A DNA stretch of 39,550 nucleotides from an uncultured Gammaproteobacteria bacterium (GCA_964557475.1 CAZLAG010000002.1:1-39550), one strand, 5' to 3'; positions 13,070 to 29,126 are shown, counted from the first letter of the stretch. A program made the numbers and translations. The notes: generated from the letters alone by a model not told the origin.

Positions 13070-13515
13070 TTTTTTTCTACACATTTTAATGTAACAGCCG
13101 ACTTAATTTCTTGAAAATAATCATTTTTATTTATTTCTTTACCATCAATATAACAAGAAAAATTTCCATCTAATATTTTTTTATTAAACCCTACAATTCT
13201 TTCGTATTCATTTAAAAAACCTGCATAAGTTTTATCTTCAATTGCTGACAAAGAAAGAGTACTATTGGCTTTTTTACCATCTCGACAATTGATTTCAACT
13301 TTTACATAATCTGTCTTTTTTGGATCACCCAATATTTGATATTTACACAAATCATCAGTTTTATCTCTAAATTTCGATTGACCCATAATCAATGTGTTAA
13401 CTTTTTCTTCAGAAAAATTATTTTTTAATCTTTTTTTTAGACCAAAATAAATTGTTGTCACAATTACAAGGTAAACAATCAAAAAACCAATTAATAATTT
13501 ACTTCTTCGAGTCAT
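13066..13515 (-). CDS. Small N-terminally membrane-anchored protein with four Cys, unknown function
   Basis: ATG at 13515-13513 (the track adds one upstream TTG codon). One N-terminal TM (LLIGFLIVYLVIVTTIYFGL), then a ~115-aa hydrophilic domain with 4 Cys (DDLCKY, INCRDG, FSCYIDG, LKCVEKK). Translationally coupled (ATGA) to the downstream GT-C gene. No recognisable family. Confidence 0.55.
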   Translation of the reverse strand: MTRRSKLLIGFLIVYLVIVTTIYFGLKKRLKNNFSEEKVNTLIMGQSKFRDKTDDLCKYQILGDPKKTDYVKVEINCRDGKKANSTLSLSAIEDKTYAGFLNEYERIVGFNKKILDGNFSCYIDGKEINKNDYFQEIKSAVTLKCVEKK

Positions 13516-13518
13516 CAA

Positions 13519-13531
13519 TATATTATATATT
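13519..13531. promoter_or_regulatory. AT-only divergent spacer with back-to-back -10-like hexamers (minus-strand TATAAT 13527-13522; plus-strand TATATT 13526-13531)
   Basis: The minus-strand TATAAT is separated by exactly 6 nt from the A of the ATG at 13515. This is the geometry expected for a leaderless transcript. Such hexamers are common by chance in DNA this AT-rich. Confidence 0.35.
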
Positions 13532-13535
13532 TAAA

Positions 13536-14837
13536 GTGATTAAAGGTATATATCAGAAGCTTGATTTAAAAAGAATATTAATTTTTGCTCTTTTAATTCG
13601 ACTTTTTTGTTGGCCTTGGATTTATCATGGTGATGTCAATGCCACTTATTGGTGGGGGAGATTTGCTAGCGAATTCACCTGGAGAGGCTATTATGATTGG
13701 TTATTTTTTGGTGGACACGGCATTCCAGATCAACCAATGTTGAATATTTATTACAATTGGGGTGTCCGACAAATATATTTATTTTTGTACAATATATTTT
13801 GGTTTTTAAATCAAAATATTAGGTTGTTTCCATCAAAATTCATGCAATGGTACTTTTTAGAAGGAAATCAATATCTTTTAAAAATGCCAATGGTTTTTGC
13901 TGATTTAATCCTAATTTATCTTTGTTCAAAATTTACTAAATCAAAATCTATTGCCATAATTCTAAGTTTGTACCCACCTATGATTTACAATAGTGCAGTT
14001 TGGGGAAGTGGTGACAGTATTATTAATTTATTGGCCTTACTTGGATTTTATTTTCTATGGAAAAAACGGTATACACCAGCATTTTTATTTTATGTCAGTT
14101 CTGTACTTTACAAACCATCTCTTTTAATTTGGTCTATTATTATTCCTATTATTTTAATAAAAAATAAAGTTAATCTTAAAAAGATTATCGTTTCCGGATT
14201 GATTACTCTTCTTTTTATTTATTTAATCTGTTTACCTTTTAGTCCAATAGAAATTAATCCTTTAATATGGTTTTTTACTACCATGATGACCAAAATTCTG
14301 CCTGGAATTATGGATCAAGTAACTGCCAATGCTATGAATTTTTGGGCACTAATTTTTGGTTTAAAACCCAAACTTGATGAATTTTTAATTTTTAATTTAA
14401 TCAGTGCTAGATCGTTTTCCTTAATTTTTTGTTTTATTTTATATTTAATAATTTTAATTAAATTATTCAAAAATTATTCTCAAAAGAATCTATTATTAAC
14501 ATTGGTTACTATCACTATGGCTACTTTTACCTTTATGACTAGAATGCATGAACGATATACTTTTCCCGCCTTAATTCCTTTGCTATTACTTTCATATCAA
14601 GATCGTCGATTTGCAAAATATTTTTTTATACTGTCGATTACCCACATGATTAATGTTTATAGCGGTTGGTGGACACCTCATATACCTTTTTTAATCAAAC
14701 TTTTTGACAATCAATTTACCGTCCGCAGTATCAGTCTAATCAATATTATTATTACTCTTAAATTAATTTTCTTTAATTTTAATATAAATAAAACTAATCA
14801 AAATCAATCCTGTCCACCACCACCAAAGAAAAGATAA
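13536..14837 (+). CDS. Polytopic GT-C-like glycosyltransferase candidate (ALG6/ALG8-like or Gpi18/PIG-V-like); paralogue of 10357-11700
   Basis: The track starts at TTG 13452, which would overlap the divergent gene's 5' end by more than 60 nt. In-frame GTG 13536 (VIKGIYQKLDLKRILIFALLIRLF) aligns with the paralogue's N-terminus. Motifs as listed for 10357-11700. The last 25 codons overlap the convergent gene. Confidence 0.7.
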   Translation: MIKGIYQKLDLKRILIFALLIRLFCWPWIYHGDVNATYWWGRFASEFTWRGYYDWLFFGGHGIPDQPMLNIYYNWGVRQIYLFLYNIFWFLNQNIRLFPSKFMQWYFLEGNQYLLKMPMVFADLILIYLCSKFTKSKSIAIILSLYPPMIYNSAVWGSGDSIINLLALLGFYFLWKKRYTPAFLFYVSSVLYKPSLLIWSIIIPIILIKNKVNLKKIIVSGLITLLFIYLICLPFSPIEINPLIWFFTTMMTKILPGIMDQVTANAMNFWALIFGLKPKLDEFLIFNLISARSFSLIFCFILYLIILIKLFKNYSQKNLLLTLVTITMATFTFMTRMHERYTFPALIPLLLLSYQDRRFAKYFFILSITHMINVYSGWWTPHIPFLIKLFDNQFTVRSISLINIIITLKLIFFNFNINKTNQNQSCPPPPKKR

Positions 14838-16541
14838 TTTTATTCCAATTTCTTTTATTGAAGTTTTAGTATAACTAAAAAAATTAATTGCTAGCCTATC
14901 TTTACTATCTATTTTTACTTTTAAACTTTGATCTTTATTAATTGTTTCTTTCAATCCAATCTCTAGAGATTTCGAATTAGACATATTTTCTGGAATATCT
15001 ACTCTCAACCAACCATCAGGAGTTGCATTGTAAGCAGTAAAATCTTTTTCTATTTTATTATCAAAATTGTCTTTTATTAATAAGACACCTTTATCATTAG
15101 AACTATCTTTAACTTTATCCAAAGAAAACTCTAAATATTTTAAACCCTTTTCAACTTCATAAGACCATTTTTTTTGATCTACTTCTGATAATAAAACTCT
15201 CTTTTCGGAAACCTTACTATCAATTCTTTTTTGAACTTTAAAATTATTTAAACCAACAATTAAAATTATCCAAAAAAACCATGGTACCAATAACCACCAT
15301 TTTTTAAAATGAATTTTATTATTTTTTATATCGATAGTTTTAGTTTTTCGTCCCAAAAACCATATTGCTGTACCGGCCAAAATCGTCTGAGCCAGATTTA
15401 TTAATGTTGAAATATCAATTCCTTTATTTTTAGTAAATTCAATTAAACTTGGGAAATTAATTAAATTAGGAATTACGGGTGTCAACAAACCCCAAGTCAA
15501 AAATCTATCATCAAATCCCAAAGCCAATATTAACCAGCTAACAAAAATAATTATAAGTGGTAAATAAACATTTTTATTTGGTTTTTCACTAAAAAGTAAT
15601 ATTGATAAAAAAGGCATCAACCAAAGCATCCATTGTGGATTGAAATGACAGAAAGCCAAAATCACCAAACAAGTTTGTACTAAAACCAAAGTTACATTAT
15701 TAATAGTTTTTTTCTTATTAAAAGATTTAATTGCCAAAAAAACCAATAAAAGAGGAACTATTAATATCTCTTTTCCAAAACCCAAGGGAATATTAGCTAT
15801 AAACATTCTTTGAGATAAACCAGAATTTAAAACAGCTTCAATAAAATAACTTTTACTCAACCAAGGAAGCATTATTAAAAAATAAACCAAAACTACACTA
15901 GCTGATTTAAAAATTAACTTAATTATCTTTTTTTCCCAAACAAACAAAAACATTAAAGACCATATAATAGGATAATTTTTTACCCCAGATGCCAATCCCC
16001 AAAGTAAAGCTGTTAACCACCATTTGTCAATTAAATAAATTCCCAATAAAAACAATGTTATCGCCACAATGTCGTTTTGGCCCATAGCCACTAAAGAATA
16101 TAAAGTTATAGGATTTAAACACCAAAATAAAATTGCTTTTTTGCCCAAATCTATATTGCTAGTATATTTCCAAACAATTTTAAAAATTAACCAACCACTT
16201 AATAATCCTAAAATTAATAATGGTATTTTAGTCGCCAAAGTATATTTCATTATCTTAAGATCAAAAGAAGCTTGAGCACTACCACTGGCCAACCATTCAT
16301 CAAATCCATTTCCGGCTATAAATTTTGATATTGGATAATGAATTTTTAACCACCAATAATGAGCTGGAGGATAATGAAAATCGGGAATGTCTAAACTATG
16401 TTCATTTAAATAAGAATATATATTCCAAACTTTTCCATTTTCTAAGGCTGGATATCTCAAAGTTAATTTTGTATCAGGGTGATAAGTTAATGGAGCCAAA
16501 AGACCCCAAATCAAAACTATTAAACAAAGAATTTTTTTCAT
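14763..16541 (-). CDS. Polytopic GT-C-like glycosyltransferase candidate with C-terminal soluble domain and terminal TM anchor
   Basis: 592 aa from the ATG at 16541-16539. First-loop motif HPDTKL...FHYPPAHYWW, and a MGQNDIVAI motif shared with 10357-11700. Many TM segments. A ~150-aa hydrophilic domain (KVQKRIDSK...FSYTKTS) is followed by a final TM (LSFLWWWWTGLILISFIYI). Confidence 0.7.
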   Translation of the reverse strand: MKKILCLIVLIWGLLAPLTYHPDTKLTLRYPALENGKVWNIYSYLNEHSLDIPDFHYPPAHYWWLKIHYPISKFIAGNGFDEWLASGSAQASFDLKIMKYTLATKIPLLILGLLSGWLIFKIVWKYTSNIDLGKKAILFWCLNPITLYSLVAMGQNDIVAITLFLLGIYLIDKWWLTALLWGLASGVKNYPIIWSLMFLFVWEKKIIKLIFKSASVVLVYFLIMLPWLSKSYFIEAVLNSGLSQRMFIANIPLGFGKEILIVPLLLVFLAIKSFNKKKTINNVTLVLVQTCLVILAFCHFNPQWMLWLMPFLSILLFSEKPNKNVYLPLIIIFVSWLILALGFDDRFLTWGLLTPVIPNLINFPSLIEFTKNKGIDISTLINLAQTILAGTAIWFLGRKTKTIDIKNNKIHFKKWWLLVPWFFWIILIVGLNNFKVQKRIDSKVSEKRVLLSEVDQKKWSYEVEKGLKYLEFSLDKVKDSSNDKGVLLIKDNFDNKIEKDFTAYNATPDGWLRVDIPENMSNSKSLEIGLKETINKDQSLKVKIDSKDRLAINFFSYTKTSIKEIGIKLSFLWWWWTGLILISFIYIKIKEN

Positions 16542-16555
16542 ACTGTTTTCACTAA

Positions 16556-16572
16556 AGTATAACAGTTATACT
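16556..16572. promoter_or_regulatory. Perfect 17-bp palindrome AGTATAAC-A-GTTATACT in the 39-bp divergent spacer; candidate bidirectional -10 pair and/or operator
   Basis: Read directly: 8-bp arms 16556-16563 and 16565-16572 are exact reverse complements. Each strand therefore carries TATACT: on the plus strand at 16567-16572, 8 nt before ATG 16581; on the minus strand at 16561-16556, 14 nt before the ATG at 16541. A third half-site copy, ACTGTT, sits at 16542-16547. Confidence 0.5.
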
Positions 16573-16580
16573 AAATCAAA

Positions 16581-18236
16581 ATGAAAATAAAAATTTTCAT
16601 CGCAATTCTTATTATATCCTTAGCTGCTTTTGTCCGGCTTTATCAATTAAACAATTTACCACCGTCACTTTACTACGATGAAATTGATGCTGGTTATCAA
16701 GCTCAGATATTTAATCAAAACAAGACTGACTATTATGGAAATAAGTTTCCAATTCATTTTCAATCATTCGGAGACTTTCGCACCTCTCTCCATATTTATA
16801 CCATTGCTTTAACTCAAAAAATTATTTCCAATCCCGATATATCTGTTAGATTACCATCAGCCATTTTTGGGATTTTATCAGTAATCATTTTTTATCTTAT
16901 TACCAAATCTTGGTTATCTGCCTTACTTTTAGCTATCTCACCTTGGGCAGTTCATTATAGTCGAATCGGTTTTGAAGTCTCTGGTATGCTCTTTTTTATT
17001 CTTTTAGGTATATATTTTTGGCAAAAATTTTTAAATCAACAAAAGATATTTTACCTTTATTTAGCCTCATTTTCATTTTGTCTCTCTCCATATTTTTATA
17101 GTACTTCTAAATTATTTTTAATATTTATTGGTCTGATTATACTTTTTACCAGTTATAGACAAATTTTTAGTCTCGGTTTTAAGAAGATATTTTTATTAAT
17201 TATATTCACTTTATTACTCTTAACTCCTTTAACTATAGATACCCTAAAAGGTAAGGCTGGTTTTCGTTTTCAATATATTAGTATTTTTACTCAACCGCAT
17301 TCAGAACAAATTGTTGATAGTCTTCGTTTTGAAGATGCTTCTATTGATCATCCGAACCAAATTGGTATCAAAACTTCTTTAGTTTCAAAAATTGCCCACA
17401 ATAAATATCAACTAGTGATCAATCGTTTTGTAAAAAATTATCTTTCATCATTTTCTATTAATTTTCTTTTGCTCGGCGGCGACAGTAATATAAGACATGG
17501 TTTTGGCGGTAATTTTGGTCTAATTTATATAACTGATTTATTTCTTATTATTTATGGATTTATATTTTTATTTTCCAGTAAAAAAAATACTTCATTAACT
17601 TCATTTTTATTCTATTTATTAATTCTTTCTCCAATTCCATACGCCTTAACCCGTGATACCGATTCACCTCATGCTACTAGGTTAATTTTAATGTTGCCAT
17701 CACTAATATATTTCACTAGTTTAGGAATTCAATTTTTAGTTAAGAAACATTCTTGGACAAAATATTTAATCTTCATCTTTTATTCCGTCAGTTTTTTAAA
17801 TTTTTGTCACTACTATAAATATCATTACCCAAATCAATCAGCCATGGCTTGGCAAACAGGCATGAAAGAGACAGTTATCGCTACCAACGAATATCCTCAA
17901 TCAACCCTTGTTTTTTCAGATAGTTATATTTCTTTTGTTTCATTTTTGCTTTATTACCGACCTTATTCCCTTACCAAAGGGGATTCTATAAAAAATCATC
18001 TAACTAATTTTTCCAATGAATCTTTTTCAGGACAACTACTCGATCATCAATTTTATTTTGGTACCATAAATTGGTCCAACACAAATAATTTTTCTGCCGA
18101 TACCTTATATATTGTTCCAAAATCTGAATATCAGGCTAAATCTTTATCATCTTCATTTAAGATACTCCGAAATATTCCCAAAAAATATACCAACCAAGAA
18201 GAATTTTATATAATTAAAAAAGAGTTATCTCGATGA
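16581..18236 (+). CDS. ArnT/PMT-like GT-C glycosyltransferase (GT39/GT83-like), paralogue 1 of the tandem array
   Basis: TM1, then LYYDEIDAGYQAQIF...FQSFGDFRT...HYSRIGFEVSG. Multi-TM core. The C-terminal soluble domain AWQTGMKETV... aligns with the paralogues. Confidence 0.8.
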   Translation: MKIKIFIAILIISLAAFVRLYQLNNLPPSLYYDEIDAGYQAQIFNQNKTDYYGNKFPIHFQSFGDFRTSLHIYTIALTQKIISNPDISVRLPSAIFGILSVIIFYLITKSWLSALLLAISPWAVHYSRIGFEVSGMLFFILLGIYFWQKFLNQQKIFYLYLASFSFCLSPYFYSTSKLFLIFIGLIILFTSYRQIFSLGFKKIFLLIIFTLLLLTPLTIDTLKGKAGFRFQYISIFTQPHSEQIVDSLRFEDASIDHPNQIGIKTSLVSKIAHNKYQLVINRFVKNYLSSFSINFLLLGGDSNIRHGFGGNFGLIYITDLFLIIYGFIFLFSSKKNTSLTSFLFYLLILSPIPYALTRDTDSPHATRLILMLPSLIYFTSLGIQFLVKKHSWTKYLIFIFYSVSFLNFCHYYKYHYPNQSAMAWQTGMKETVIATNEYPQSTLVFSDSYISFVSFLLYYRPYSLTKGDSIKNHLTNFSNESFSGQLLDHQFYFGTINWSNTNNFSADTLYIVPKSEYQAKSLSSSFKILRNIPKKYTNQEEFYIIKKELSR

Positions 18237-19906
18237 AATCAACAAAATCCAAAAAACCAATCATTAAACTGATATTAATATTAATATTTGCCCTTTTTAT
18301 TCGTTTTATCTTTCTAGACAAAATACCTGTTGGTATTAATGATGATGAACTTCATTTTGTTTTAAAAGCCAAAAGTTTTTTTTACGGTCAAACGATTTCT
18401 TTTGATGAAATGTCTAGTGTTATATTCTCTCCAATAATCGGCTTGTTACCTTTAAACCTAGTTACCGCTAGGCTGCCTTATATTGTTACAAGTGTCTTGT
18501 CAATAATTCTTCTTTATTTGATAGTCAAAAAAATAACTAAAAATACCAATTTATCTATATTTGTTGTTGTTGCTACTAGTCTTAATCCTTGGAGTATATA
18601 TACTGCCAGGACATCTTTTGACGCACCTGTAGCTCTTCTCTTTTTTCTATTATCTTTATATTTGATGCTAAAAGACAATAAATTTTCTATTCTTTTATCA
18701 ATTCCAATTGGTTTTCTGGCTTTTCATTCTTATATTGGAACGAAAGTCATTTATTTTCCTTTTATTTTTATTTCTGCTATCTACTGCTGGAAATTTATAA
18801 ATAAAAAATTTGGAATATATTATTTGGCTACCATTATTTTTTCTTTAATTATCACTCTCAATTTTGCTATTTCACTTTCTCATCAATCAGTTGGTCGACG
18901 TCTTTCAGAATTGTGGACTCCCTCATCACCCAAAATAGCTGCCATTGTTAACGATGAAAGGCGTGAATCTCTCAATCCAACTATTACTCTATTTACCAAT
19001 AAATACACTATCTACTTTAGAGAAGCATTTGAAAAATATCTCAATAATTTTTCTCCAAATGTCATGTTTTTAAACGGAGATGCAGCTTTTACTGGATCTC
19101 TTTGGATACATGGTTATTTTTATTATTTGGATATCATCCTAATAATTTTGGGAATGTTTTTTCTATTTCAAAGATATCGTTCTTTTTTCTTATTAATTAC
19201 TTCTTTTATTTTATTATCTCCAATTCCTGAGGCCATTCGTGGAGATTCTATTCCAGCTTATGTTTTTCATTCATCTTTGCAATATCCATTTTTATTCATA
19301 TTAGTCGGGGCTGGACTTTTTTATTTTTTTCAAATCTTTAAATCAAAATTGATTAGAATTGGTTTTATTTTTTTATATCTTTTAAGCTTTGCTAATTTCT
19401 TGAATATATATTTTCTCAAAGCTCCAGTCTACCAATCAGAAAGTTTTGTTCTTAGCTATCGTCTCATAAGTAAATATCTTTCCTTTGAAAGTAAAAACAA
19501 CAAAGAGATATATTTTTTAACTCATCAAACAGAACCTATTTACCATTCGTTTCTTTTTTATACAAATTCTCTAAACCGTAAAAATCTTGATTTCATTAAA
19601 GATGAATATAATAAAAAAGATGGTACCTTCAATTTTAAAAATATTCATTTTATTAATGAGACAAGTCATCTTCCAAAAGATAAAAATTATGTTCTAATTT
19701 ATGATGTTAATCAATTTAATTTTGATAATCTAAATAAAATTTATATCAATCAAATAGCTAGTAATAATAAAATTTTTGCTATCTCCAATGGATCAACATG
19801 TCAAAATATTCAAACAAAGAGTTTTGTTTCTAATTTTAATATTTCAGATTTAGAGATTGAAAAAATGAATGAAAATTATTTTTGTACCAAATTTATCAGC
19901 CAATAA
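18233..19906 (+). CDS. ArnT/PMT-like GT-C glycosyltransferase, divergent paralogue 2
   Basis: ATGA overlap with the upstream gene. TM1, then GINDDELHFVLKAKSFFYG...YTARTSFDAP. Multi-TM, with a ~170-aa C-terminal soluble domain. This is the most divergent member of the array. Confidence 0.75.
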   Translation: MKSTKSKKPIIKLILILIFALFIRFIFLDKIPVGINDDELHFVLKAKSFFYGQTISFDEMSSVIFSPIIGLLPLNLVTARLPYIVTSVLSIILLYLIVKKITKNTNLSIFVVVATSLNPWSIYTARTSFDAPVALLFFLLSLYLMLKDNKFSILLSIPIGFLAFHSYIGTKVIYFPFIFISAIYCWKFINKKFGIYYLATIIFSLIITLNFAISLSHQSVGRRLSELWTPSSPKIAAIVNDERRESLNPTITLFTNKYTIYFREAFEKYLNNFSPNVMFLNGDAAFTGSLWIHGYFYYLDIILIILGMFFLFQRYRSFFLLITSFILLSPIPEAIRGDSIPAYVFHSSLQYPFLFILVGAGLFYFFQIFKSKLIRIGFIFLYLLSFANFLNIYFLKAPVYQSESFVLSYRLISKYLSFESKNNKEIYFLTHQTEPIYHSFLFYTNSLNRKNLDFIKDEYNKKDGTFNFKNIHFINETSHLPKDKNYVLIYDVNQFNFDNLNKIYINQIASNNKIFAISNGSTCQNIQTKSFVSNFNISDLEIEKMNENYFCTKFISQ

Positions 19907-19912
19907 ATATCT

Positions 19913-21568
19913 ATGAATAAGAGAAAAATAATTATTTTAATTAGTATAATTTTAATCAGTTTAATAACTTTTTATCGTCTTTGTCGTCCTGGGTATTTTT
20001 CTATGATGGATGACATGCATGTTTTTCGTCTTCAACAATTTGATCAATGTCTTCATGATGGACAAATTCCTTGTCGTTTCATTAGTGATGGAGGGATGGG
20101 CTATGGTTACCCTCTTTTTAATTATTATTCACCTCTACCTTATTCCATTGCCGAAGGTTTTCATTTAATTGGTTTTAGTTTTATAAATAGTCTTAAAATC
20201 ACCTTTGCCTCTTGTCATTTAATTGGTGTTTTGGGAATGTTTTTATTCGCTTCTCTTTTTTGGGGAGAAACTGGAGCAGCTATTTCATCAATTATATTTT
20301 TATTAGCCCCTTATCAAGCCACAGACAGTTGGGTTAGGGGAGCTATAGCTGAATCCTTAGCCATCAATATTATTCCTTGGATTTTTTATTTTCTCACTCA
20401 ATTTATAAATCATAAAAAAAATAGATTACTTCTAATAGTTTCTTTAAGTAGTTTATTCTTAAGCCATAATTTAATTAGCTTGGCAATTGCTCCCGTATTA
20501 CTAATTTATTCAATAATTCTTTTATTAAAAAATAAAAATCTAAACTTAAAATCATTATTTAGATTAACTATTCCAGTTTTATTATCGCTTGGTCTTTCGG
20601 CATTTTTTGTGCTTCCAGCTATCTTTGAAAAAAATCTAGTTACCGTTGATACTATGACTCAAGGCTATTTTAATTATGTCAATCATTTTGCAACCCTAAA
20701 TCAACTTTTTATCTCTCGTTTTTGGGGATACGGTGCTTCACTTTGGGGCCCAATCGATGATATGGCATTTTCTGTTGGTTTAATCCAATGGTTACTGCCT
20801 TTAATTTCCATAATTTTAATTATTTTTAACAAACATAAAAAAAACTCTTTATCAATTATATTTTTCTTTTTAGTTTTTCTATTTTCACTTTTTTTGACCC
20901 ACAATAAATCTACTTTTATTTGGAAACTCTTTCCATTTATGCCTTATTTTCAATTCCCTTGGAGATTTTTATCAATAGCTATTTTTGCTGCTTCTTTTAT
21001 TTCCGGTTCGATCGTTCTTTTAATCAAGAAAAAATTTCAAACTATTATATTAATAATCATTGCTTTACTAACTATAATTTTAAATTTTTCTTACTTTAAG
21101 GAAGATATTTGGTATCCAAATTTAACTGACAAAGAAAAACTTTCAACAGAAAATATTATTGTTTCAAGTGGTGCTGGTCTCAAAGATTATTGGCCAAAAT
21201 TTGGTAAAAATTTCCCCAACTCTTTTTCTACTCAAAATCCAGTTGTTTTAAAAGGTAAAGTCGATTTTATTAAGTTTTACAAAAACTCTCATTCTGCCCA
21301 AGCTTATTTATCAGTTAATAGTGATAATGCCGTATTCAATTTACCTATGGTGTACTTCCCAAATTGGGAATTAAAAATTAATGGTCAAAATAGAGATTTT
21401 CAAATTGATCCAGATCTTGGTTTAATTCAATTAAATTTAACTTCAGGCCAATATAGTCTTGAACTAAAATTTAAAAACACTCCAATTCGTATTCTTGCCA
21501 ACTATTTTAGTTTAGCTTCATTAATTTTATTTGCTATTATGATAGTCAAGAAAAAAAATGAAAAATAA
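19913..21568 (+). CDS. Polytopic membrane protein, GT-C-like candidate (PTPS-related / YfhO-like type); paralogue of 36-1790
   Basis: RPGYFSMMDDMHVFRLQQ...GMGYGYPLFNYYSPLPY...HNKSTFIW...FQFPWRFL. Same architecture as 36-1790, including the C-terminal soluble domain plus terminal TM. Confidence 0.7.
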   Translation: MNKRKIIILISIILISLITFYRLCRPGYFSMMDDMHVFRLQQFDQCLHDGQIPCRFISDGGMGYGYPLFNYYSPLPYSIAEGFHLIGFSFINSLKITFASCHLIGVLGMFLFASLFWGETGAAISSIIFLLAPYQATDSWVRGAIAESLAINIIPWIFYFLTQFINHKKNRLLLIVSLSSLFLSHNLISLAIAPVLLIYSIILLLKNKNLNLKSLFRLTIPVLLSLGLSAFFVLPAIFEKNLVTVDTMTQGYFNYVNHFATLNQLFISRFWGYGASLWGPIDDMAFSVGLIQWLLPLISIILIIFNKHKKNSLSIIFFFLVFLFSLFLTHNKSTFIWKLFPFMPYFQFPWRFLSIAIFAASFISGSIVLLIKKKFQTIILIIIALLTIILNFSYFKEDIWYPNLTDKEKLSTENIIVSSGAGLKDYWPKFGKNFPNSFSTQNPVVLKGKVDFIKFYKNSHSAQAYLSVNSDNAVFNLPMVYFPNWELKINGQNRDFQIDPDLGLIQLNLTSGQYSLELKFKNTPIRILANYFSLASLILFAIMIVKKKNEK

Positions 21569-23216
21569 AATTTTATTTAGTTTAATTATTATCATTGCTT
21601 TTGTACTTCGTTTTTGGCAATTAAACAAATTTCCAGTATCTCTTAATTGGGATGAAATTAGTCATGGCTACAATACTTACAGTTTACTAAAAACTGGTAA
21701 AGATCAGTGGGGGATTTCATGGCCAATCTTTAATTTTAGAGCCTATGGTGACTATCCTACCACCTTAAATATGTATCTTTCTTTTCCCTTTGTATATTTT
21801 TTTGGTTTAAATGAATTTAGTATTAGAATTGTTTCCGCCCTTTGTGGTTTTGGTTTGGTAATAGTTTCATTTTTCTTGGGTCAAGAAATTTTTAAAAACA
21901 AAAAGATGTCATATTTCCTTATGTTTTTGGTGGCCATTTCGCCATGGACATTTTTTCCATCTCGTGGTGTCTTTCAATCCACTGTTGCTCAATTCTTTTT
22001 TTCTCTCGGCTTATTATTTTTAATTAAAGCCGTTAAAAAAATAAATTTTCTTCCCTTAGGTTTATTATTCGTTTCTATTTCTACTTACGCCTACCACAAC
22101 ACTAAAATTGTTGTCCCTCTTTTACTTTTAGCCTATCTTGTAATCTTTTTTCAAAAAACAAAAAATAATCTTTTTAGTCATCTAAAAGTATTTATTGTCA
22201 GTTTTCTAATTTTATTAGTTTTAATGACTCCTCAAGTAATCAATCTATTTAATAAAGATTCTCAAGCTAGAAGCCGTTGGGTTTTTGCTATCAATCCAGC
22301 CACAATCAACCAAATTGAAAACAATCGAAATAATTTTTCAGGCAATCCGCTAATTGCTAAATTTCTATACAATCGTGTTACTGTTTTTAGTCAAATTGTT
22401 GTCAAAAATTATCTTGGATTTTTAAATCCAAAAATACTTTTTTTTGATAGTACTCAGAATTTTCAATTTAATATTCCCGGGTTTGGAATTTTGTATTCTA
22501 TTTGTCTACCTTTTTATTATCTTGGCATAGTTTATTTAATTTTTAAAATTTTTAAAAAAGACCAAAATTCTTTATTTCTTCTATCATGGTTTCTTATTGG
22601 TCTAATTCCAGCAGTTATTACCGTTGGTGATTTTCCAATTCTTCGGGCTATGACCATACTGCCATTACCACAAATTTTTATTACTTTGGGTTGTTATCAA
22701 GCCACCAAAATCTTAAAAAACAAACAATTAAATAAAATATTTATTGCCTTATTTATGGTAATTTTAACATTTCAATCATTTAAATATTTTCAAAATTATT
22801 TTATTCTCTATGCCAAAAATCATTCAGATGCCTGGCAATATGGTTATAAACAAGCCGTGGATTATATAAAAGATAATTATAATAATTACGATCAAATCAT
22901 TTTTACAAAAAAATATGGCGAAGCTCATGAATTTATTCTTTTCTATTGGCCGTGGAATCCATCTATTTACCAAACTGATCCAAATTTAGACTGGGATTAT
23001 CATGCTGATTGGTATTGGGTTAATGCTTTTGATAAATTTAAATTTATCAACGATTGGGAAATAAAAGCCAAAACTAAGAAGTTAAATTCCAAAACACTTT
23101 TAATCACCTCTCCAGGCAACTATAATCAAGAAGATAGTCATTTAATAAAAACTATTAATTTTTTAAATGACCAACCGGTGTTTGATATTTTAGAATTAAA
23201 TGAAATCCAAAAATAA
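21558..23216 (+). CDS. ArnT/PMT-like GT-C glycosyltransferase, paralogue 3
   Basis: 11-nt overlap with the upstream gene. LNWDEISHGYNTYSLLKTGKDQWG...FRAYGDYPT...PSRGVFQS. C-terminal domain AWQYGYKQAVDYIKDNY. Confidence 0.8.
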   Translation: MKNKILFSLIIIIAFVLRFWQLNKFPVSLNWDEISHGYNTYSLLKTGKDQWGISWPIFNFRAYGDYPTTLNMYLSFPFVYFFGLNEFSIRIVSALCGFGLVIVSFFLGQEIFKNKKMSYFLMFLVAISPWTFFPSRGVFQSTVAQFFFSLGLLFLIKAVKKINFLPLGLLFVSISTYAYHNTKIVVPLLLLAYLVIFFQKTKNNLFSHLKVFIVSFLILLVLMTPQVINLFNKDSQARSRWVFAINPATINQIENNRNNFSGNPLIAKFLYNRVTVFSQIVVKNYLGFLNPKILFFDSTQNFQFNIPGFGILYSICLPFYYLGIVYLIFKIFKKDQNSLFLLSWFLIGLIPAVITVGDFPILRAMTILPLPQIFITLGCYQATKILKNKQLNKIFIALFMVILTFQSFKYFQNYFILYAKNHSDAWQYGYKQAVDYIKDNYNNYDQIIFTKKYGEAHEFILFYWPWNPSIYQTDPNLDWDYHADWYWVNAFDKFKFINDWEIKAKTKKLNSKTLLITSPGNYNQEDSHLIKTINFLNDQPVFDILELNEIQK

Positions 23217-24831
23217 ACTATTTCTCATCATTATCGTTTTAGTTTCCTTTTTAATCAGAATTTATCAATCTCAGCAATATCCTTCCTTACTTTGGGATGA
23301 AGCTGCTTTAGGTTACAATGCTTATTCAATTCTAGAAACTGGCAAAGATGAATATGGTCAATTTCTACCAATTATTTTTAAATCATTCGGAGACTACAAA
23401 CCAGGATTTTATGTTTATCTTTGTCTTCCCTTTATTAAAGTCTTTGGACTCAATCAACTTTCTACCAGATTACCATCAATAATTTTAGGTTCACTGCTTC
23501 CTCTTTTTATTTTTCTTCTTATAAAAGAAATTAGTCCCAAATCTCACAAGGTAGCTCTAATTGCTGCTTTTATAACTGCTTTCAATCCATACAATATTCA
23601 TTTTAGTCGTGGTGCTTGGGAAACTAATATTCTTACAGTTGAACTTGTTTTAGCTTGTTTTCTATTTTATCGTTATTTAAATCGACATAAATCCAAATAT
23701 TTATTATTTTCTGCTATTACTTTTGGTCTTACCCTTTTTACTTATCAAGCAGGAAAAATGATTAGTTTATTTCTCATCATTATTCTTTTTCTTCTTCATT
23801 TCAAATCTTTAAATATCAAAAAAACAATAATAAATTTTATTATTCCATTAGGTATATTTACACTTCCTATTCTTTACGGGCTCATTTTTAGTAGTAATTC
23901 TAATAGATTGAAAGTTGTAAGTTTACTTTCTTATCCTAGATCTCAACAGGAAACACAAACAATTATTAATGAAACGAATCAACTAGATTACTCCATCTTT
24001 TATAGTCAACCAATCTATTTTGTTAAAAACTTTTTATCTCGATATTTTAATCATTTTTCACCTAGATTTCTTGCTTTCGAAGGTGATTGGCAAAATCCTC
24101 GACACTCAGCACCATACGTTGGAGTTATTTTGTATCCTAGCTTGATATTCCTATTTATAGGCATATTTTTTGGTCTAAGTCGAAAAAAAATTGATCACTT
24201 AAATCTCTTCTTTCTTCTTTGGTTATTAGTCGCTCCAATACCAGCCGCCCTAACTAGAGACTCAATTCAAGCTGTTAGGTCAATGTCTCTTTCAATTCCT
24301 TTAATATATTTTATTTCCTTAGGTTTATTCGCTTTTTTTGAAAAATTTAAATCAAAAATTCTATTTATATTTATAATAATGATTTATCTATTATCTTTTG
24401 TTTATTATTTTGATCTTTATCTAAATCACACTGTCAAAAGAAATCCAATTGATTATCTTTATGGCTATAAACAAGCCATTGATTATATTCAAAAAAATCA
24501 GAATCGATTTAATCGAATTTATTTAACTGATTATTATCAACAACCATATATCTATTATTTATTTTATTCAAAATATTCTCCTTCAAAATATCAACAGCAA
24601 GCAAACTTAGAAGAAGCTTCTCTTGATACTGGTAAAATAAAAATAATTGACAATATTCGTTTTGAAACCGCTCAATTTAATTTTATTAAAGATCATCCTG
24701 GTACTTTAGGTATTTTTTCCCAAGAAGAAATATATCGACAAGGAATAGATCAAAAACCGGAATTTTCTCAGTTTATTCCACTTAGTCCAATTGGGAATAT
24801 TTCCACTTTTTATGCTTATGAAAATCCATAA
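23200..24831 (+). CDS. ArnT/PMT-like GT-C glycosyltransferase, paralogue 4
   Basis: 17-nt overlap with the upstream gene. LLWDEAALGYNAYSILETGKDEYG...FKSFGDYKPG...HFSRGAWE. C-terminal YLYGYKQAIDYIQKNQ. Closest paralogue to 24818-26437. Confidence 0.8.
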   Translation: MKSKNKLFLIIIVLVSFLIRIYQSQQYPSLLWDEAALGYNAYSILETGKDEYGQFLPIIFKSFGDYKPGFYVYLCLPFIKVFGLNQLSTRLPSIILGSLLPLFIFLLIKEISPKSHKVALIAAFITAFNPYNIHFSRGAWETNILTVELVLACFLFYRYLNRHKSKYLLFSAITFGLTLFTYQAGKMISLFLIIILFLLHFKSLNIKKTIINFIIPLGIFTLPILYGLIFSSNSNRLKVVSLLSYPRSQQETQTIINETNQLDYSIFYSQPIYFVKNFLSRYFNHFSPRFLAFEGDWQNPRHSAPYVGVILYPSLIFLFIGIFFGLSRKKIDHLNLFFLLWLLVAPIPAALTRDSIQAVRSMSLSIPLIYFISLGLFAFFEKFKSKILFIFIIMIYLLSFVYYFDLYLNHTVKRNPIDYLYGYKQAIDYIQKNQNRFNRIYLTDYYQQPYIYYLFYSKYSPSKYQQQANLEEASLDTGKIKIIDNIRFETAQFNFIKDHPGTLGIFSQEEIYRQGIDQKPEFSQFIPLSPIGNISTFYAYENP

Positions 24832-26437
24832 AATTATTCTTCCTCTAATTTTAGTCGTCGCTTTTTTAATTCGATTTGTTGATATTAGTAATACACCAGC
24901 TTTAAATCCTGATGAGGCTGCTCTAGGCTACAATGCTTATTCTTTAATTCAAACAGGTAAAGATGAACATGGAGTCTCTTGGCCACTTCATTTCAAATCA
25001 TTTGGCGATTATAAACCAGGCGGATACGTATATTTGGCCATACCATTCATAAAATTACTTGGGGTTACACCATTGGCCGTCAGATTACCGAATTTAATTC
25101 TATCTATATTAACTATCCTTTTTTTGTATAAACTTGTTTTGCTATTTACTAAAAACTATTCACTATCAAGCTTGACCGCTTTTGTTTTAGCGGTCAGTCC
25201 TTGGCACATCCATTTTAGTCGAGGAGCCTGGGAATCATCAGCTGCTCTCTCATTTATTATGATTGGTACTTATTTCTTTTTTAAGTCTATTCAGTCAAAA
25301 TTTATAAAAAACTTTTCCTTTTTTCTGGTTTTTTATATCGGATCACTTTATATTTATCATTCAGCCAGACTTATTGCTCCACTTTTAGGTCTTTCTTTAT
25401 GTATTTTATATTTCAAATTTCTTTTCAAAAAACTTCCTCAAATATTAATTCCTTTATTTTTTGCTGCTGTTTTGGTTTTTCCAGTTCTTTTTTCTTTTTT
25501 AAACAATGGGGGAACAACCAGACTCGGAGGAGTTGGTCTATCTGCTGATCAAGGACCTATCAATCGTTCTAATGAATTATTAAATCAACATCAAAGCTTG
25601 AGTCTTCCCATAAGAATTATTCACAATAAAAAGGTCTTATATCTTATTTCTTGGGCTCAAAAATATTCTTCTCATTTTGATTTAAACTTTTTAATTATTA
25701 ATGGCGATGAAGTTCCTAGATCTAAAGTACCTGAAAACGGACAATTGCTTTTAATTGATTTTGTTTTTCTTCTTGTTGGTCTTATATTTACTATTAAAAC
25801 CAAAATATTCGCCAATAAAACTAAAATATTTTTATTCCTTTTTCTTTTCATTTCGCCAATTGCTTCTTCTCTAACATTTCAAGCTCCATCAGCTCTAAGG
25901 GCATTGGCTATGATTATTCCATTATCAATATTTATTGCTGGAGGTATCTTTAGTTTTATTGAATTTATCAAAAAATATCGGATATATCGATATATATCAA
26001 TATTATTTATTCTTATATATGCTTACTTTGCCGCTTATTATTTAGATAGTTATTTCTTTCATTATGCCAAAAGATACCCATTTGCTTGGCAATATAAATT
26101 TGACGAACTTGTTCCTTTTGTCGAATCACAAAAAAATGAATTTAAGAATATCTATATTACTAATAAATATGATCAACCGTATATCCTTTTTCTCTTCTTT
26201 TCAAAATACCCTCCAACCCAAATTCAATCTCAAATCAAATTAACAACGCCTGACAAATATGGTTTTTCTACAGTTATTGGATACGACAACTATCATTTTG
26301 GTACAATTGATTGGAATCAAATTCCAAATAATTCTTTAGTAGTTGCTTCAGACGAAACCATTACTGGTGGAGAACTTATTAAAACAATTAATTTCTCTAA
26401 TGGTCAACCAGCCTTTAAAATTTATCAAAAGAAATGA
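24818..26437 (+). CDS. ArnT/PMT-like GT-C glycosyltransferase, paralogue 5
   Basis: The track starts at TTG 24791. ATG 24818 (MKIHKIILPLILVVAFLIRF) matches the paralogue N-termini; ATG 24812 is also possible. Motifs: NPDEAALGYNAYSLIQTGKDEHG...FKSFGDYKPG...HFSRGAWE. Confidence 0.8.
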   Translation: MKIHKIILPLILVVAFLIRFVDISNTPALNPDEAALGYNAYSLIQTGKDEHGVSWPLHFKSFGDYKPGGYVYLAIPFIKLLGVTPLAVRLPNLILSILTILFLYKLVLLFTKNYSLSSLTAFVLAVSPWHIHFSRGAWESSAALSFIMIGTYFFFKSIQSKFIKNFSFFLVFYIGSLYIYHSARLIAPLLGLSLCILYFKFLFKKLPQILIPLFFAAVLVFPVLFSFLNNGGTTRLGGVGLSADQGPINRSNELLNQHQSLSLPIRIIHNKKVLYLISWAQKYSSHFDLNFLIINGDEVPRSKVPENGQLLLIDFVFLLVGLIFTIKTKIFANKTKIFLFLFLFISPIASSLTFQAPSALRALAMIIPLSIFIAGGIFSFIEFIKKYRIYRYISILFILIYAYFAAYYLDSYFFHYAKRYPFAWQYKFDELVPFVESQKNEFKNIYITNKYDQPYILFLFFSKYPPTQIQSQIKLTTPDKYGFSTVIGYDNYHFGTIDWNQIPNNSLVVASDETITGGELIKTINFSNGQPAFKIYQKK

Positions 26438-27258
26438 AAAACAAATCGACTCTTTCAGTCACCCTAGCTGTTTACAATGAATCAAAAAACATAACTCGTT
26501 GTCTTGAGGCTATTAAAGATATTGCTAACGAAATTATCGTTGTTGATGGTCAATCACAAGACGATACTGTTTTATTAGCCAAGAAATTCAAAAAAGTAAA
26601 AGTAATTTCTACTACCAACAAACCCATGTTTCATATCAATAAACAAATGGGGATTGATGCTTGTAAAAGTGACTGGATTCTTCAACTTGATGCTGATGAA
26701 ATTGTTACTTCCGAGTTAAAAAAAGAAATTAATCATATTCTTCAAAAAGATCCAAATGATATAAAAGAATCTGGATTTTGGATTCCACGTAAAAATTATT
26801 TTTTAGGATCTTTTCTAAAAAAAGGTGGTCAATATCCTGATCCTACAATTATATTTTATAAAAGCGGTCAAGCCCATTTACCTTGTAAAGATGTTCACGA
26901 ACAAGCTGAAGTTAGTGGTTTAGTTGGCTGGCTCAAAAATGATCTAGAACATTATGCAGATACTTCTTTTTCTTTATACCTTCTTCGAGCCAATCGTTAT
27001 ACTACACTCTTAGCTAACGAATTAAAAGAAAAAAAAGTTAAAATTAATATCTTTAATTTTTTAAATTATTATTTTTTAAAACCTCATTGGTGGTTTTTAA
27101 AAACTTTTTTTAGACATCGTGGTTATGTTGATGGTTTTCCTGGTTTTGTTTTCTCTTTTTATTCAGCTCTTCGTTTTCCCATTGCCTACACTAAATATTA
27201 CGAATTAATTAAAACCAATCGAGATATAAATTTATCACAAGATTGGGATAAAAAATAA
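26434..27258 (+). CDS. Family 2 glycosyltransferase (GT-A), WaaE/KdtX-like subtype
   Basis: ATGA overlap. LSVTLAVYNESKNITRCL...IIVVDGQSQDDT...LQLDADE...GQYPDPTIIFYKSG. Third member of this subtype in the window. Confidence 0.85.
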   Translation: MKNKSTLSVTLAVYNESKNITRCLEAIKDIANEIIVVDGQSQDDTVLLAKKFKKVKVISTTNKPMFHINKQMGIDACKSDWILQLDADEIVTSELKKEINHILQKDPNDIKESGFWIPRKNYFLGSFLKKGGQYPDPTIIFYKSGQAHLPCKDVHEQAEVSGLVGWLKNDLEHYADTSFSLYLLRANRYTTLLANELKEKKVKINIFNFLNYYFLKPHWWFLKTFFRHRGYVDGFPGFVFSFYSALRFPIAYTKYYELIKTNRDINLSQDWDKK

Positions 27259-27259
27259 T

Positions 27260-28330
27260 ATGCCAAAAATAGCTATCAATATTTCTCCAATTTTTGATGG
27301 TAACTCTATTAGAGGAGTTGGTTATTATACTACCAATCTTATTGACGCCATTCAAAAAGAAATTAAAAAAGATAAACAATATAAAGGATGGTCTATTAAG
27401 CTTATTAAAAAAACTATTACCACTAAATCAGGTAAATATGATTTAGTTCATTATCCATTTTTTGATCCTTTTAGTCTAACTCTTAAGATTGATCCATATA
27501 TTCCGACTATAGTTACAGTCCACGATCTTATTCCACGAGAGTTTCAAAAACATTTTCCAGTTGGTGTTAAAGGAGAATTAAAATGGTTTATTCAAAAAAA
27601 TCTTCTAAAAAGAGTTGATCGAATAATTACTGTTTCTGATTATTCCAAAAAAATAATAAATCAAATAACAAATTACCCAACTAATCGAATTTTTACTACT
27701 CATTTAGCCGCCGACCCATCCTTTAAACCAATTAACGATAAACAAAGATTAAAAGAAATCCAGCAAAAATATCATCTTCCAAAAAAATTTGTTTTATTTA
27801 TAGGCGATATAAATTGGAATAAAAACGTTCCTAATTTAGTAAAAGCCTGCCAACAAGCCAATTATCCTCTAGTTATTGTCGGCTCTAGCGCCACCAAGCA
27901 AAACGTTCCCGTTCACCCTTGGACAAAAGATCTTCATTGGCTTCAATCTCAAAATTATCCGAATCTCATTAAAACTGGTTTTATTCCTGATGAGGAATTG
28001 CCTATTTTTTATAATTTAGCCACTGTTTATTGTCAACCATCATTTGCAGAAGGTTTTGGACTACCTCTCACTCAAGCCATGCAATCAGGTTGCCCTGTAG
28101 CTTATAGTCAAACCAGTTGTCTTCCAGAAATTATGTCTCAAAATGGCATTTCTTTTGACCCTTACTCCGTAAGGAGTATAAAAAATGCTCTAAAAGAATA
28201 TTGGGATAACCCTAAAGTTAGACAAAAATATAGTCAACAAGCACTTATTTATGTCAAAAAATTTAACTGGAGCTCAACTGCCAAAAATACTCTAGCAGTT
28301 TACAAATTAGCTCTTTTAAATGGAAAATAA
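27260..28330 (+). CDS. GT-B fold glycosyltransferase, family 4-like
   Basis: FAEGFGLPLTQAMQSGCPVAYSQTSCLPEIM (EX7E-type region), and N-terminal GVGYYT. Confidence 0.85.
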   Translation: MPKIAINISPIFDGNSIRGVGYYTTNLIDAIQKEIKKDKQYKGWSIKLIKKTITTKSGKYDLVHYPFFDPFSLTLKIDPYIPTIVTVHDLIPREFQKHFPVGVKGELKWFIQKNLLKRVDRIITVSDYSKKIINQITNYPTNRIFTTHLAADPSFKPINDKQRLKEIQQKYHLPKKFVLFIGDINWNKNVPNLVKACQQANYPLVIVGSSATKQNVPVHPWTKDLHWLQSQNYPNLIKTGFIPDEELPIFYNLATVYCQPSFAEGFGLPLTQAMQSGCPVAYSQTSCLPEIMSQNGISFDPYSVRSIKNALKEYWDNPKVRQKYSQQALIYVKKFNWSSTAKNTLAVYKLALLNGK

Positions 28331-29126
28331 ACAACATTTTTTATCGGTAATTGTCCCTATCTACAAACAAGAAAAAACAATCAAAAAAGATCTTACTGAT
28401 ATTGATCAAGTTTTAAAGCAAATTCGTTATGATTATGAAATAATTGCCGTTGTTGATGGTAAAAAAGAAGATAATTCATATAAAATTGCCAAAAAAATAA
28501 AAATTCCTAAACTAAAAGTTTTTGGATATCAAAATAATCATGGAAAAGGTTATGCAGTTCGTTTTGGTATGGCCAAAACCAAAGGGGATTACATTGCATT
28601 TATTGATGCTGGTATGGAAATCGACCCAAATGGTATTTCGTTAATCATAGAGCACATGGAATGGTATAACGCCGATATTATTGTTGGTTCAAAACGACAT
28701 CCAGCTTCACAAATTGATTACCCTATTGATCGTAGAATTGTTAGTTTTGGCGGCCACTTAATCGCTAAGTATTTATTAGGCATTAATATTCATGATACTC
28801 AAGCCGGTTTAAAAATATTTAAACGATCTGTTTTGATTAAAGTTTTACCCAGACTACTTATCAAACGATATGCTTTTGACTTAGAGATACTTTCAGTTGC
28901 TAATCATCTAGGTTTTAAAAAAATATATGAAGCTCCAATTAAGCTAAATTATAATTTCACTAGTCTTACTCACGCTACTGGCTTCAAAACTATTTATAAT
29001 TGTCTCGTGGATAGTTTAGCAGTTTTTTACCGACTCAGAATCATCAATTATTATGATGATAAAAATAAAAGAAAATGGATTTACGATCCTGAATTATCAA
29101 TGCGTATCAATACCGGCGAACAATGA
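28320..29126 (+). CDS. Family 2 glycosyltransferase of the DPM1/ALG5/GtrB type (candidate polyprenyl-phosphate hexose synthase)
   Basis: LSVIVPIYKQEKTI...VDGKKEDNS...GKGYAVRFGM...FIDAGMEIDP...IVGSKRHPAS...IHDTQAGLKIFKRSVL. The DTQ.G.K.F.R signature is characteristic of Dol-P-Man / Dol-P-Glc synthase-like enzymes. Confidence 0.75.
   Translation: MENKQHFLSVIVPIYKQEKTIKKDLTDIDQVLKQIRYDYEIIAVVDGKKEDNSYKIAKKIKIPKLKVFGYQNNHGKGYAVRFGMAKTKGDYIAFIDAGMEIDPNGISLIIEHMEWYNADIIVGSKRHPASQIDYPIDRRIVSFGGHLIAKYLLGINIHDTQAGLKIFKRSVLIKVLPRLLIKRYAFDLEILSVANHLGFKKIYEAPIKLNYNFTSLTHATGFKTIYNCLVDSLAVFYRLRIINYYDDKNKRKWIYDPELSMRINTGEQ

Follow-up and report, generated by a model that had tools for sequence, protein, structure and literature searches.

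Results

Organization of the six-gene array

This study concerns six consecutive genes, here called G1 to G6, on the + strand at 16581-26437 of the DNA stretch CAZLAG010000002.1:1-39550 (assembly GCA_964557475.1). The whole stretch, 39.5 kb in length, is referred to as the window. A sequence-only reading had described these genes as a translationally coupled row of GT-C glycosyltransferases, in which a PTPS-related-type enzyme is inserted among five diversified paralogues resembling ArnT and PMT. The list of open reading frames (ORFs) gave six ORFs of 539-557 aa on the same strand in this interval, in agreement with that description (Table 1), and the motif strings it had quoted were all located in the paralogues. 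The junctions were also as described. G1 and G2 overlap by 4 nt, G2 and G3 are separated by 6 nt, and the next three junctions are overlaps of 11, 17 and 14 nt, followed by a 4-nt overlap of G6 with the GT2 gene directly 3' of it. The 14-nt value presumes that G6 starts at ATG 24818. ATG 24812, which gives a 20-nt overlap with G5, and TTG 24791 are also open, and in the near-identical strain L046 (L numbers denote related loci) the start was called at the equivalent of ATG 24812. From the overlaps we infer that translation of the six genes may be coupled. No Shine-Dalgarno-like sequence was evident upstream of the starts. Overlaps or gaps of at most 17 nt are the rule at same-strand junctions throughout the window, and the tight packing is therefore not peculiar to these genes.

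Pairwise identity among the five GT39-like paralogues of PMT_2/PMT type (G1, G2, G4, G5 and G6) is 25-33%. BLASTP identified G5 and G6 as the closest pair (33% identity, E 1e-89) and G2 as the most divergent member (E 1e-11 to 1e-20 against the other paralogues), both of which had been read from the sequence beforehand. G4 and G6 matched at E 3e-59, and G1 and G6 at E 1e-44. The similarity is not limited to generic hydrophobicity, since E values down to 1e-89 indicate true homology.

Protein families and predicted fold

Profile matches to Pfam and NCBIfam were judged against the curated gathering cut-offs. All five paralogues matched Pfam PMT_2 (PF13231) and/or PMT. The matches were above cut-off for G1 (PMT_2 36.1 bits, PMT 24.1 bits), G5 (PMT_2 49.1 bits) and G6 (PMT, PF02366, 29.8 bits), and below it for G2 (PMT_2 19.1 bits) and G4 (PMT_2/PMT 24.3 and 19.2 bits). 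The proteins do not qualify as Agl23 (TIGR03663), whose cut-off of 126.25 bits exceeds the scores of both G5 (55.2 bits) and G1 (30.4 bits). Nor do they qualify as ArnT (GT83), because there was no NCBIfam ArnT match and the neighbouring genes encode GT2, GT4, Wzx and radical-SAM proteins, not arnABCDEF. G3 matched PTPS_related (PF10131) at 50.7 bits against a cut-off of 26.4, which supports its PTPS-related-type identity, and YfhO (PF09586) at 24.8 bits, under the cut-off of 28.5. It is a 35% identical paralogue of the protein encoded at 36-1790 (BLASTP, E 7e-91). Pfam placed a further protein of the window, encoded at 11666-13084 on the − strand, in PMT_2. The sequence-only reading had counted this gene, bounded there at 11666-13069, as a sixth ArnT/PMT-like member; the family is right, but BLASTP gave no match to the five array paralogues.

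An AlphaFold2 (AF2) model of G5, based on a 77-sequence alignment, had a predicted local distance difference test (pLDDT) value of 92.6 and a predicted template modelling (pTM) score of 0.92. Eleven of its helices were read as transmembrane (TM), with the N-terminus inside and the C-terminus outside (N-in/C-out). The first extracytoplasmic loop, EL1 (residues 22-85), contains helix 32-47, next after TM1 and with D33-E34 at its start, and a beta-hairpin that bears the SFGDY motif. A long outer loop spans residues 231-311, and a C-terminal alpha/beta domain spans 415-543. Searches of the PDB by sequence, with G5 or with the 77-sequence profile, yielded nothing useful, the best match being STT3 at E 0.02, so that only the comparison of folds was informative on structural relatives. 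Foldseek against the PDB with the G5 model returned GT-C enzymes only, with AglB, STT3 and PglB at E values of about 1e-7. The best whole-length match was ArnT (TM-score 0.55-0.56), followed by Pmt4, ALG9/12, EmbA/B/C and AftB/D. In the AF2 model of G3 (pLDDT 86.6, pTM 0.90), a GT-C membrane domain is followed by a beta-sandwich (444-520) and a last TM helix; this model likewise matched GT-C structures only (AglB, ArnT, STT3, AftA and AftD). The fold of G1, G2, G4 and G6 was assigned through their homology to G5. On these grounds the six are indeed GT-C genes in a row. The PMT_2 subfamily is large and uniform in architecture, with 7,928 clusters at 50% identity matching at E <= 1e-30 among 1.84 billion representatives. 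The best 150 of these clusters were all 513-634 aa long, and nearly all were matched across almost the whole profile.

Catalytic signature and selection

The signature survey covered 197 PMT_2-like proteins from the window and from about 45 related loci, whose gene maps formed the comparative set. Corrected distances were clustered by average linkage into orthogroups, in place of single linkage at 38% identity, which merged G4, G5 and G6. With the exception of the G2 group, 23 positions were about 100% conserved across the orthogroups. In G5 numbering these are P28, D33, E34, Y39, A41, D50, G53, P57, S62, D65, Y73, R90, P92, P130, S136, R137, E141, Y182, R236, G295, P346, T352 and R360. D33-E34 is invariant in the 77 homologues and in every orthogroup. 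A DE/DxD motif just before the first outer-loop helix is a hallmark of GT-C enzymes, and the equivalent aspartate, D74, is essential in the PMT of Mycobacterium tuberculosis (PMC12331936). The array proteins carry this motif in the first extracytoplasmic loop. G1 has the full signature (PDE..Y.A..D..G..P..S..D..Y..R.P..P..SR..E..Y..R..G..P..T..R), the signature of G6 is 100% conserved across 37 orthologues, and G4 of the window keeps it except for S62A and E141Q. The G2 group keeps DE (in 'GINDDELHF'), lacks D50 and the SFGDY hairpin with S62 and D65, and has T352R and R360H; its orthologues are 46-79% identical among themselves. In the G3 group 60 columns are invariant, including D33 (in 'MDDM'), R55, R142, E147, H185, N186, E239, D282 and W350-R351.

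The sequence-only reading had allowed that most copies might lack their catalytic acidic residues, as decayed duplicates would. We found that DE is kept in all five paralogues and that the signature is intact outside the changes listed for G2 and G4. The ratio of nonsynonymous to synonymous substitution (dN/dS, Nei-Gojobori) against L001 was 0.07 for G5 and 0.09 for G6. Against L044 it was 0.10-0.19 for G1, G3, G4, G5 and G6, with G1 at 0.19; dS is saturated for the distant pairs in these estimates. The copies are intact, not decayed duplicates, and G1 and G3-G6 are under purifying selection.

Alignment columns were then classed over six orthogroups as universal or as group-specific, that is, conserved within groups and different between them. 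Universal and group-specific columns made up 30% and 22% of EL1, 23% and 23% of EL2, 17% and 33% of EL3, and 18% and 18% of EL5. In the C-terminal domain they made up 3% and 16%, and in the TM helices 0-6% and 0-14%. The C-terminal domain also had the lowest identity between group consensus sequences (0.23). Group-specific positions thus cluster in the soluble C-terminal domain and in those outer loops that surround the active site, while the TM helices vary freely. Such a distribution would be expected if acceptor or donor specificity had diverged, and it fits a common chemistry combined with group-specific substrate recognition.

Gene order and history among related loci

The 3' block, G4-G5-G6 followed by GT2-GT4-GT2-GT2-radical SAM-GT2-GT2, is essentially invariant and has the same order in about 35 loci. 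G5 is directly followed by G6 in every related locus in which the contig continues, always with an overlap of 14-20 nt. In L045 (14783-17957), G5 is duplicated in tandem between G4 and G6, and each copy is about 55% identical to G5 of the window. Copy number therefore changes even within the conserved core. The 5' part has at least two architectures, '[G2] G1 PTPS', which is the window type, and 'f b a', which consists of other PMT_2 orthogroups. The 'f b a' type occurs with or without an ORF of 204 aa and a PMT_2 gene, 'c', inserted between G4' (the G4 counterpart) and G5. This insertion is seen in L001 (7774-10004) and also in L005, L009, L011, L014, L019 and L032. The 204-aa ORF has no Pfam match, and the last 65 nt or so of 'c' resemble the 3' end of G4 in the window.

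The PTPS_related slot can be empty or filled by a single gene, by a pair of antisense paralogues or by four copies in tandem. Since the same slot is occupied in 10 related loci, the presence of G3 is not a one-off insertion into the array, as had been supposed. G2 has four orthologues among the loci, about 52% identical to it and located upstream of a G1-like gene. L044 lacks exactly this gene and is collinear with the window on either side of it (blastn matches at 9230-18216 and 19925-29867). All six genes, G2 included, recur in L046 and L047, two near-identical strains from other samples (ERZ28614920, ERR2683124). Orthologues of G1 are 55-73% identical, and those of G4 are about 70% identical in loci with the window-type cassette.

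In a rough neighbour-joining tree, G5 and G6 are sisters, G1 groups with orthogroup 'b', G4 lies near 'c' and G2 branches deep. Corrected distances are 0.35-0.83 within orthogroups and 1.4-2.5 between them. Each paralogue has its own orthogroup in Shapirobacteria, and the between-group distances exceed the within-group distances; these Shapirobacteria therefore diverged after the duplications. Between the copies of the window no DNA-level repeats are left. Recent gene conversion between the paralogues was rejected: the longest direct repeat measures 57 nt and is only 70% identical. The sequence-only reading had proposed stepwise duplication into enzymes of different specificities. Different specificities are indirectly supported by the outer-loop divergence and the intact signatures, but the duplications are ancient and were not a local stepwise event.

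A mosaic cassette beside a conserved core

Comparison with L001, a close relative, by blastn found no DNA homology from about 10403 to about 22833 of the window. About 12.4 kb is swapped there, with breakpoints at 1654 and 7403 on the L001 side, and the flanks are 76-82% identical at the nucleotide level. On the right, 23143-33516 is collinear with L001 (81-82% nt and 78-91% aa identity), and on the left the GT2 at 9584-10390 is 76% (nt) and 78% (aa) identical to its counterpart. The genes in between are replaced in L001 by non-orthologous genes. G4 is only 43% identical to G4' of L001, and identity in successive 60-aa blocks is 58, 38, 23, 27, 33, 35, 27, 68, 73 and 33%. The right breakpoint is intragenic: it separates the part of G4 that encodes the membrane domain from the part that encodes the C-terminal soluble domain. 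The block identities and the position of this breakpoint indicate that the soluble domain of G4 travels with the core and its membrane domain with the cassette. Judged from these alignments, the pattern is that of serotype-type cassette replacement, with a cassette made up mostly of GT-C genes. The six genes are a real run, as the sequence-only reading had it; however, they are only part of a far larger mosaic glycan locus composed of cassette and core.

Host and surrounding locus

The proteins orthologous to G5 that are 65-94% identical belong to Ca. Shapirobacteria. By this protein similarity the host is a member of Ca. Shapirobacteria (Microgenomates, candidate phyla radiation (CPR)). Many contigs of relatives with Shapirobacteria-type arrays, in which G5 is 66-74% identical (L006, L008-L010, L014, L016-L021 and others), are titled 'uncultured Gammaproteobacteria bacterium', and some are titled 'Candidatus Parcubacteria' or 'Woesebacteria'. 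These titles look like placeholder or wrong taxonomic labels.

G1 is 100% identical to a protein on a public contig of 39,550 bp, which shows the window to be an entire contig. The whole 39.5-kb stretch is one continuous surface-glycan locus, and the six genes form the middle of a tightly packed + strand run at 16581-37744. The window holds at least 11 GT-C-like genes and about 14 GT2/GT4 genes. At least six of the GT-C-like genes have weak or sub-threshold matches only, namely G2, G4 and those at 36-1790, 10342-11700, 13452-14837 (Pfam) and 14763-16541 (NCBIfam). GT-C enzymes, a Wzx-type flippase and GT2 proteins with C-terminal TM segments are located together.

Table 1. Genes and modules of the window; positions are counted from its first nucleotide.
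Feature	Position	Strand	Description
G1	16581-18236	+	551 aa; PMT_2/PMT-type GT-C paralogue; first in + strand run; variable cassette
G2	18233-19906	+	557 aa; most divergent PMT_2-like paralogue; presence/absence gene
G3	19913-21568	+	551 aa; PTPS_related/YfhO-type GT-C; C-terminal beta-sandwich and terminal TM helix
G4	21558-23216	+	552 aa; PMT_2/PMT-like paralogue; chimeric relative to L001, breakpoint near nt 22833
G5	23200-24831	+	543 aa; PMT_2-type GT-C; conserved core gene
G6	24818-26437	+	539 aa from ATG 24818; PMT-type GT-C; conserved core gene
Variable cassette	10342-22833	mixed	D, E, 150-aa protein, F, Gm, G1, G2, G3, N-terminal ~425 aa of G4
Conserved core module	22833-33516	+	G4 C-terminal domain, G5, G6, GT2, GT4, GT2, GT2, B12-binding radical SAM, two GT2 with C-terminal TM segments
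Second PTPS_related GT-C	36-1790	+	21.2 bits, below cut-off; paralogue of G3
Wzx-type flippase	1763-3217	+	Polysacc_synt_3, 154.6 bits
559-aa protein	3175-4854	+	11 hydrophobic segments; no family match; directly after Wzx-type flippase
Six GT2/GT4 genes	after 3175-4854, before D
GT2	9584-10390		borders cassette
D	from 10342		GT87-like; Pfam match of 10342-11700 weak
E	11666-13084	-	PMT_2
150-aa protein	13066-13518	-	single-pass membrane protein with soluble domain; adjoins E
F	between 150-aa ORF and Gm		ALG6/8-like; in cassette
Gm	before G1	-	GT87; in cassette
GT2, GT4, GT2, GT2	directly after G6	+
GT2	28320		268 aa; weak ArnC, PpgS and PgfS matches
B12-binding radical SAM enzyme	30024-31517	+	in conserved core of relatives
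GT2	31514-32530	+	C-terminal TM segments (from hydrophobicity)
GT2	32518-33516	+	C-terminal TM segments (from hydrophobicity)
Hexapeptide acyltransferase (acetyltransferase)	33500-34081
Radical SAM/SPASM enzyme	34078-35100
SAM methyltransferase	35104-35760
GT4	between the two methyltransferases
SAM methyltransferase	36944-37744
TPR membrane protein	37741-39468	-	575 aa; ~7 hydrophobic segments; C-terminal TPR ~440-570

Discussion

Our data suggest that each of the six genes encodes an active GT-C enzyme, that the paralogues have different specificities and jointly act on a cell-envelope glycopolymer, and that the locus combines a conserved core of genes with a strain-variable cassette. We give this explanation a probability of roughly 55%. 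Each enzyme would work on the outer side of the membrane with a polyprenyl-phosphate-linked sugar as donor, as its fold suggests, and the acidic residue at the beginning of the first outer loop would probably serve as catalytic base. The paralogues, old and separately conserved, would differ in acceptor, linkage or donor specificity and might together elongate or decorate the glycopolymer; both the glycan acceptor and an order of action are assumed here. Lipid-linked precursors may be made by the neighbouring GT2 and GT4 enzymes and flipped by the Wzx-type protein. Exchange of the cassette (G1, G2, G3 and the membrane part of G4) by recombination would then make the glycan differ between strains. 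The run may be transcribed as a single operon. There is precedent for such a route, in which the C55-P-sugar made by a GT-A enzyme is flipped by a protein of GtrA or Wzx type and the sugar is then passed to wall polymers by a GT-C enzyme of YfhO type, or of PMT_2 type such as GtlB of Listeria (PMC8035078).

Several observations weigh against this explanation. The NCBIfam and PDB matches of the GT2 genes of the window were generic GT2 matches, all far below the cut-offs, and identified no C55-P-sugar synthase, although the C-terminal TM segments of two core GT2 proteins are suggestive of such a role. Neither a GtrA-type flippase nor an initiating phosphoglycosyltransferase was seen in the window. 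A scan of 13000-30000 for promoters and terminators gave counts at or below the shuffled expectation, which speaks neither for nor against internal transcription units, and the operon is drawn from gene spacing. We found no experimentally characterised member of the PMT_2 subfamily. G2, which is without a motif common to all the other groups, may be inactive or may act differently.

Overlapping paralogues could instead assemble co-translationally into a hetero-oligomeric GT-C complex with interdependent subunits, which would include at least a G5-G6 heterodimer. The sequence-only reading had named such assembly as its second possibility. G5 and G6 are the closest paralogues, and their adjacency and 14-20 nt overlap persist wherever the contig continues. 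Solved GT-C pairs dimerise, and Pmt1-Pmt2 (6p25), EmbA-EmbB (7bvc), the Pmt4 homodimer (9i5k) and EmbC2 (7bvh) were all among the Foldseek matches to G5. However, every copy has a complete active site and none looks purely structural. The membership of the array also varies, through the G2 indel, the cassette swap, the insertion of the 204-aa ORF and a PMT gene in L001, and the duplication of G5 in L045. Because of this variation, an obligate complex of all six is unlikely, but G5 and G6 may still form a pair. We regard the whole proposal as a minority view worth about one chance in a handful.

Protein O-glycosylation in the sense of the PMTs is slightly more doubtful again. Each paralogue would then have its own substrates, which might be secreted, S-layer, pilus or Ser/Thr-rich proteins. 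Pfam PMT is matched above cut-off by G1 and G6, the 11-TM, N-in/C-out model of G5 resembles PMTs, and NCBI names relatives 'glycosyltransferase family 39'. In streptococci, pairs of GT-A and GT-C enzymes (Pgf) are reported to glycosylate Ser/Thr-rich regions (PMC12041528), which would favour such a role. On the other hand, the best whole-length structural match is ArnT, and oligosaccharyltransferase (OST)-type enzymes outscore the PMTs, for which TM-scores were 0.31-0.48. There was no MIR match in Pfam, and no WW-like acceptor-binding element was detected. The genes lie in a Wzx-type polysaccharide locus with about 14 soluble glycosyltransferases, methyltransferases and an acetyltransferase, and teichoic acids are the acceptors of PMT_2-domain enzymes such as GtlB of Listeria (PMC8035078). 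Finally, the idea that the copies are redundant or decaying local tandem duplicates without division of labour could draw on the lost SFGDY hairpin of G2 and on E141Q and S62A in G4, but it is effectively refuted by ORFs of full length, a signature about 100% conserved per orthogroup, dN/dS of 0.07-0.19, orthologues of each paralogue in many genomes and no residual DNA similarity between the copies.

The explanation by active enzymes of different specificity can be extended. In a bolder form, a complex envelope glycan that varies between strains would be built mostly outside the cytoplasm by 5-12 dedicated GT-C enzymes, with an exchangeable GT-C 'serotype' cassette, modularity at the level of domains (G4) and a heterodimeric G5-G6 core. 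We consider this speculative and, taken as a whole, improbable. If it were true, Shapirobacteria and related Microgenomates would have a bacterial counterpart of the ALG series in the lumen of the endoplasmic reticulum, or of mycobacterial arabinogalactan and lipoarabinomannan (LAM) assembly.

The locus can be compared with several known systems. In the multi-component transmembrane glycosylation systems of monoderms (CsbB/GtcA/YfhO, GtlA/GtcA/GtlB and GacI/J/K/L), a GT-C enzyme of YfhO or PMT_2 type acts together with a GT-A (GT2) enzyme and a GtrA- or Wzx-type flippase at the outer side of the membrane (PMC8035078). The window holds all three kinds of gene, including GT-C enzymes of both YfhO/PTPS_related type and PMT_2 type. 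Those systems pair one GT-C with one GT-A, whereas here there are 5-7 tandem PMT_2 paralogues and at least 11 GT-C-like genes. The embCAB operon of mycobacteria, together with Aft, Mpt and PimE, likewise has tandem GT-C paralogues with distinct acceptors, which make an extracytoplasmic wall glycan from polyprenyl-P-sugars. EmbA-EmbB forms a heterodimer and EmbC a homodimer, and both structures (7bvc, 7bvh) were matched by the G5 model. GT87 (PimE-type) and ALG6/8-like genes are present in the window as well. The Emb proteins are about 1,100 aa long and have carbohydrate-binding modules, in contrast to the array proteins of about 550 aa with their small alpha/beta C-terminal domain. The similarity is at the GT-C core only (TM-score 0.38-0.44), the phylum is another one, and the window showed no genes of an arabinan pathway.

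ArnT (GT83; 5ezm/5f15) shares with G5 the order of its domains, the GT-C membrane domain first and a periplasmic alpha/beta domain at the C-terminus (TMq 0.55-0.56). Sequence identity is 10%, however, and no arn operon genes are present in the window. JGI annotates relatives as 'ArnT-like'. ArnT has 13 TM helices, and the G5 model has 11. We know of no CPR bacterium that makes lipid A. The PMTs (GT39; yeast Pmt1/2/4 and M. tuberculosis PMT) have in common with the array a Pfam PMT match, the DE motif at the first outer-loop helix and families of dimerising paralogues. The array proteins differ in the lack of a MIR domain, in a partial structural overlap (270-280 aligned columns with Pmt1/2), in their extra C-terminal domain and in the polysaccharide-locus context. 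In O-antigen and capsule loci, too, conserved flanks enclose a central glycosyltransferase block that varies through replacement by recombination. The block described here differs in that it consists mostly of GT-C membrane enzymes, not soluble GT-A or GT-B enzymes, and in that one breakpoint falls within a GT-C gene. Literature searches turned up no publication that describes arrays of GT-C or PMT_2 genes in Microgenomates or in CPR bacteria.

The locus is a variant of known glycan-locus and GT-C biology. It provides a further, uncharacterised case of an enzyme class already known and introduces no new principle. What it adds is mainly the arrangement of a core with an exchangeable cassette, a breakpoint within the G4 gene itself and the density at which GT-C genes occur in a CPR genome. 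CPR genomes are about 1 Mb in size, and CPR bacteria depend on contact with other cells. To our knowledge, almost nothing is known of their surface chemistry. In such a small-genome bacterium a whole 39.5 kb, with at least 11 GT-C-like transferases, is given to glycan assembly. The exchange of such a cassette among close relatives suggests that the surface glycan is under strong diversifying pressure, exerted for instance by phage, hosts or predators. The co-occurring paralogues, with their orthogroup-specific outer-loop residues mapped, offer a ready system for the study of acceptor choice in GT-C enzymes.

Other genes of the window

The 559-aa protein encoded next to the Wzx-type flippase might serve as polymerase or ligase, in a Wzy/WaaL-like role, although no profile match supports this. 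Within the cassette, the ORF at 13066-13518 on the − strand is kept in L044, L045 and L046, with 35-51% identity where measured. It was considered as a GtrA flippase and rejected, because it has a single N-terminal TM segment followed by a soluble domain. Radical SAM enzymes beside methyltransferases and an acyltransferase suggest an unusual sugar modification, for example C-methylation. At the right end of the window, the membrane part of the protein encoded at 37741-39468 matched no Pfam family; its polytopic membrane domain followed by TPR repeats recalls the arrangement in TMTC-type GT-C enzymes.

The GT2 at 29123-30100 (325 aa) differs from the other, soluble GT2 proteins in that a simple hydropathy scan showed six hydrophobic segments in it, and it may be membrane-embedded. 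Its start is uncertain, with a 77-nt overlap with the next ORF. GC content is 25-30% along 1-39550. GC skew is negative in nearly all 2-kb windows, and in all from 9,001 onwards, and the cumulative skew falls almost monotonically.

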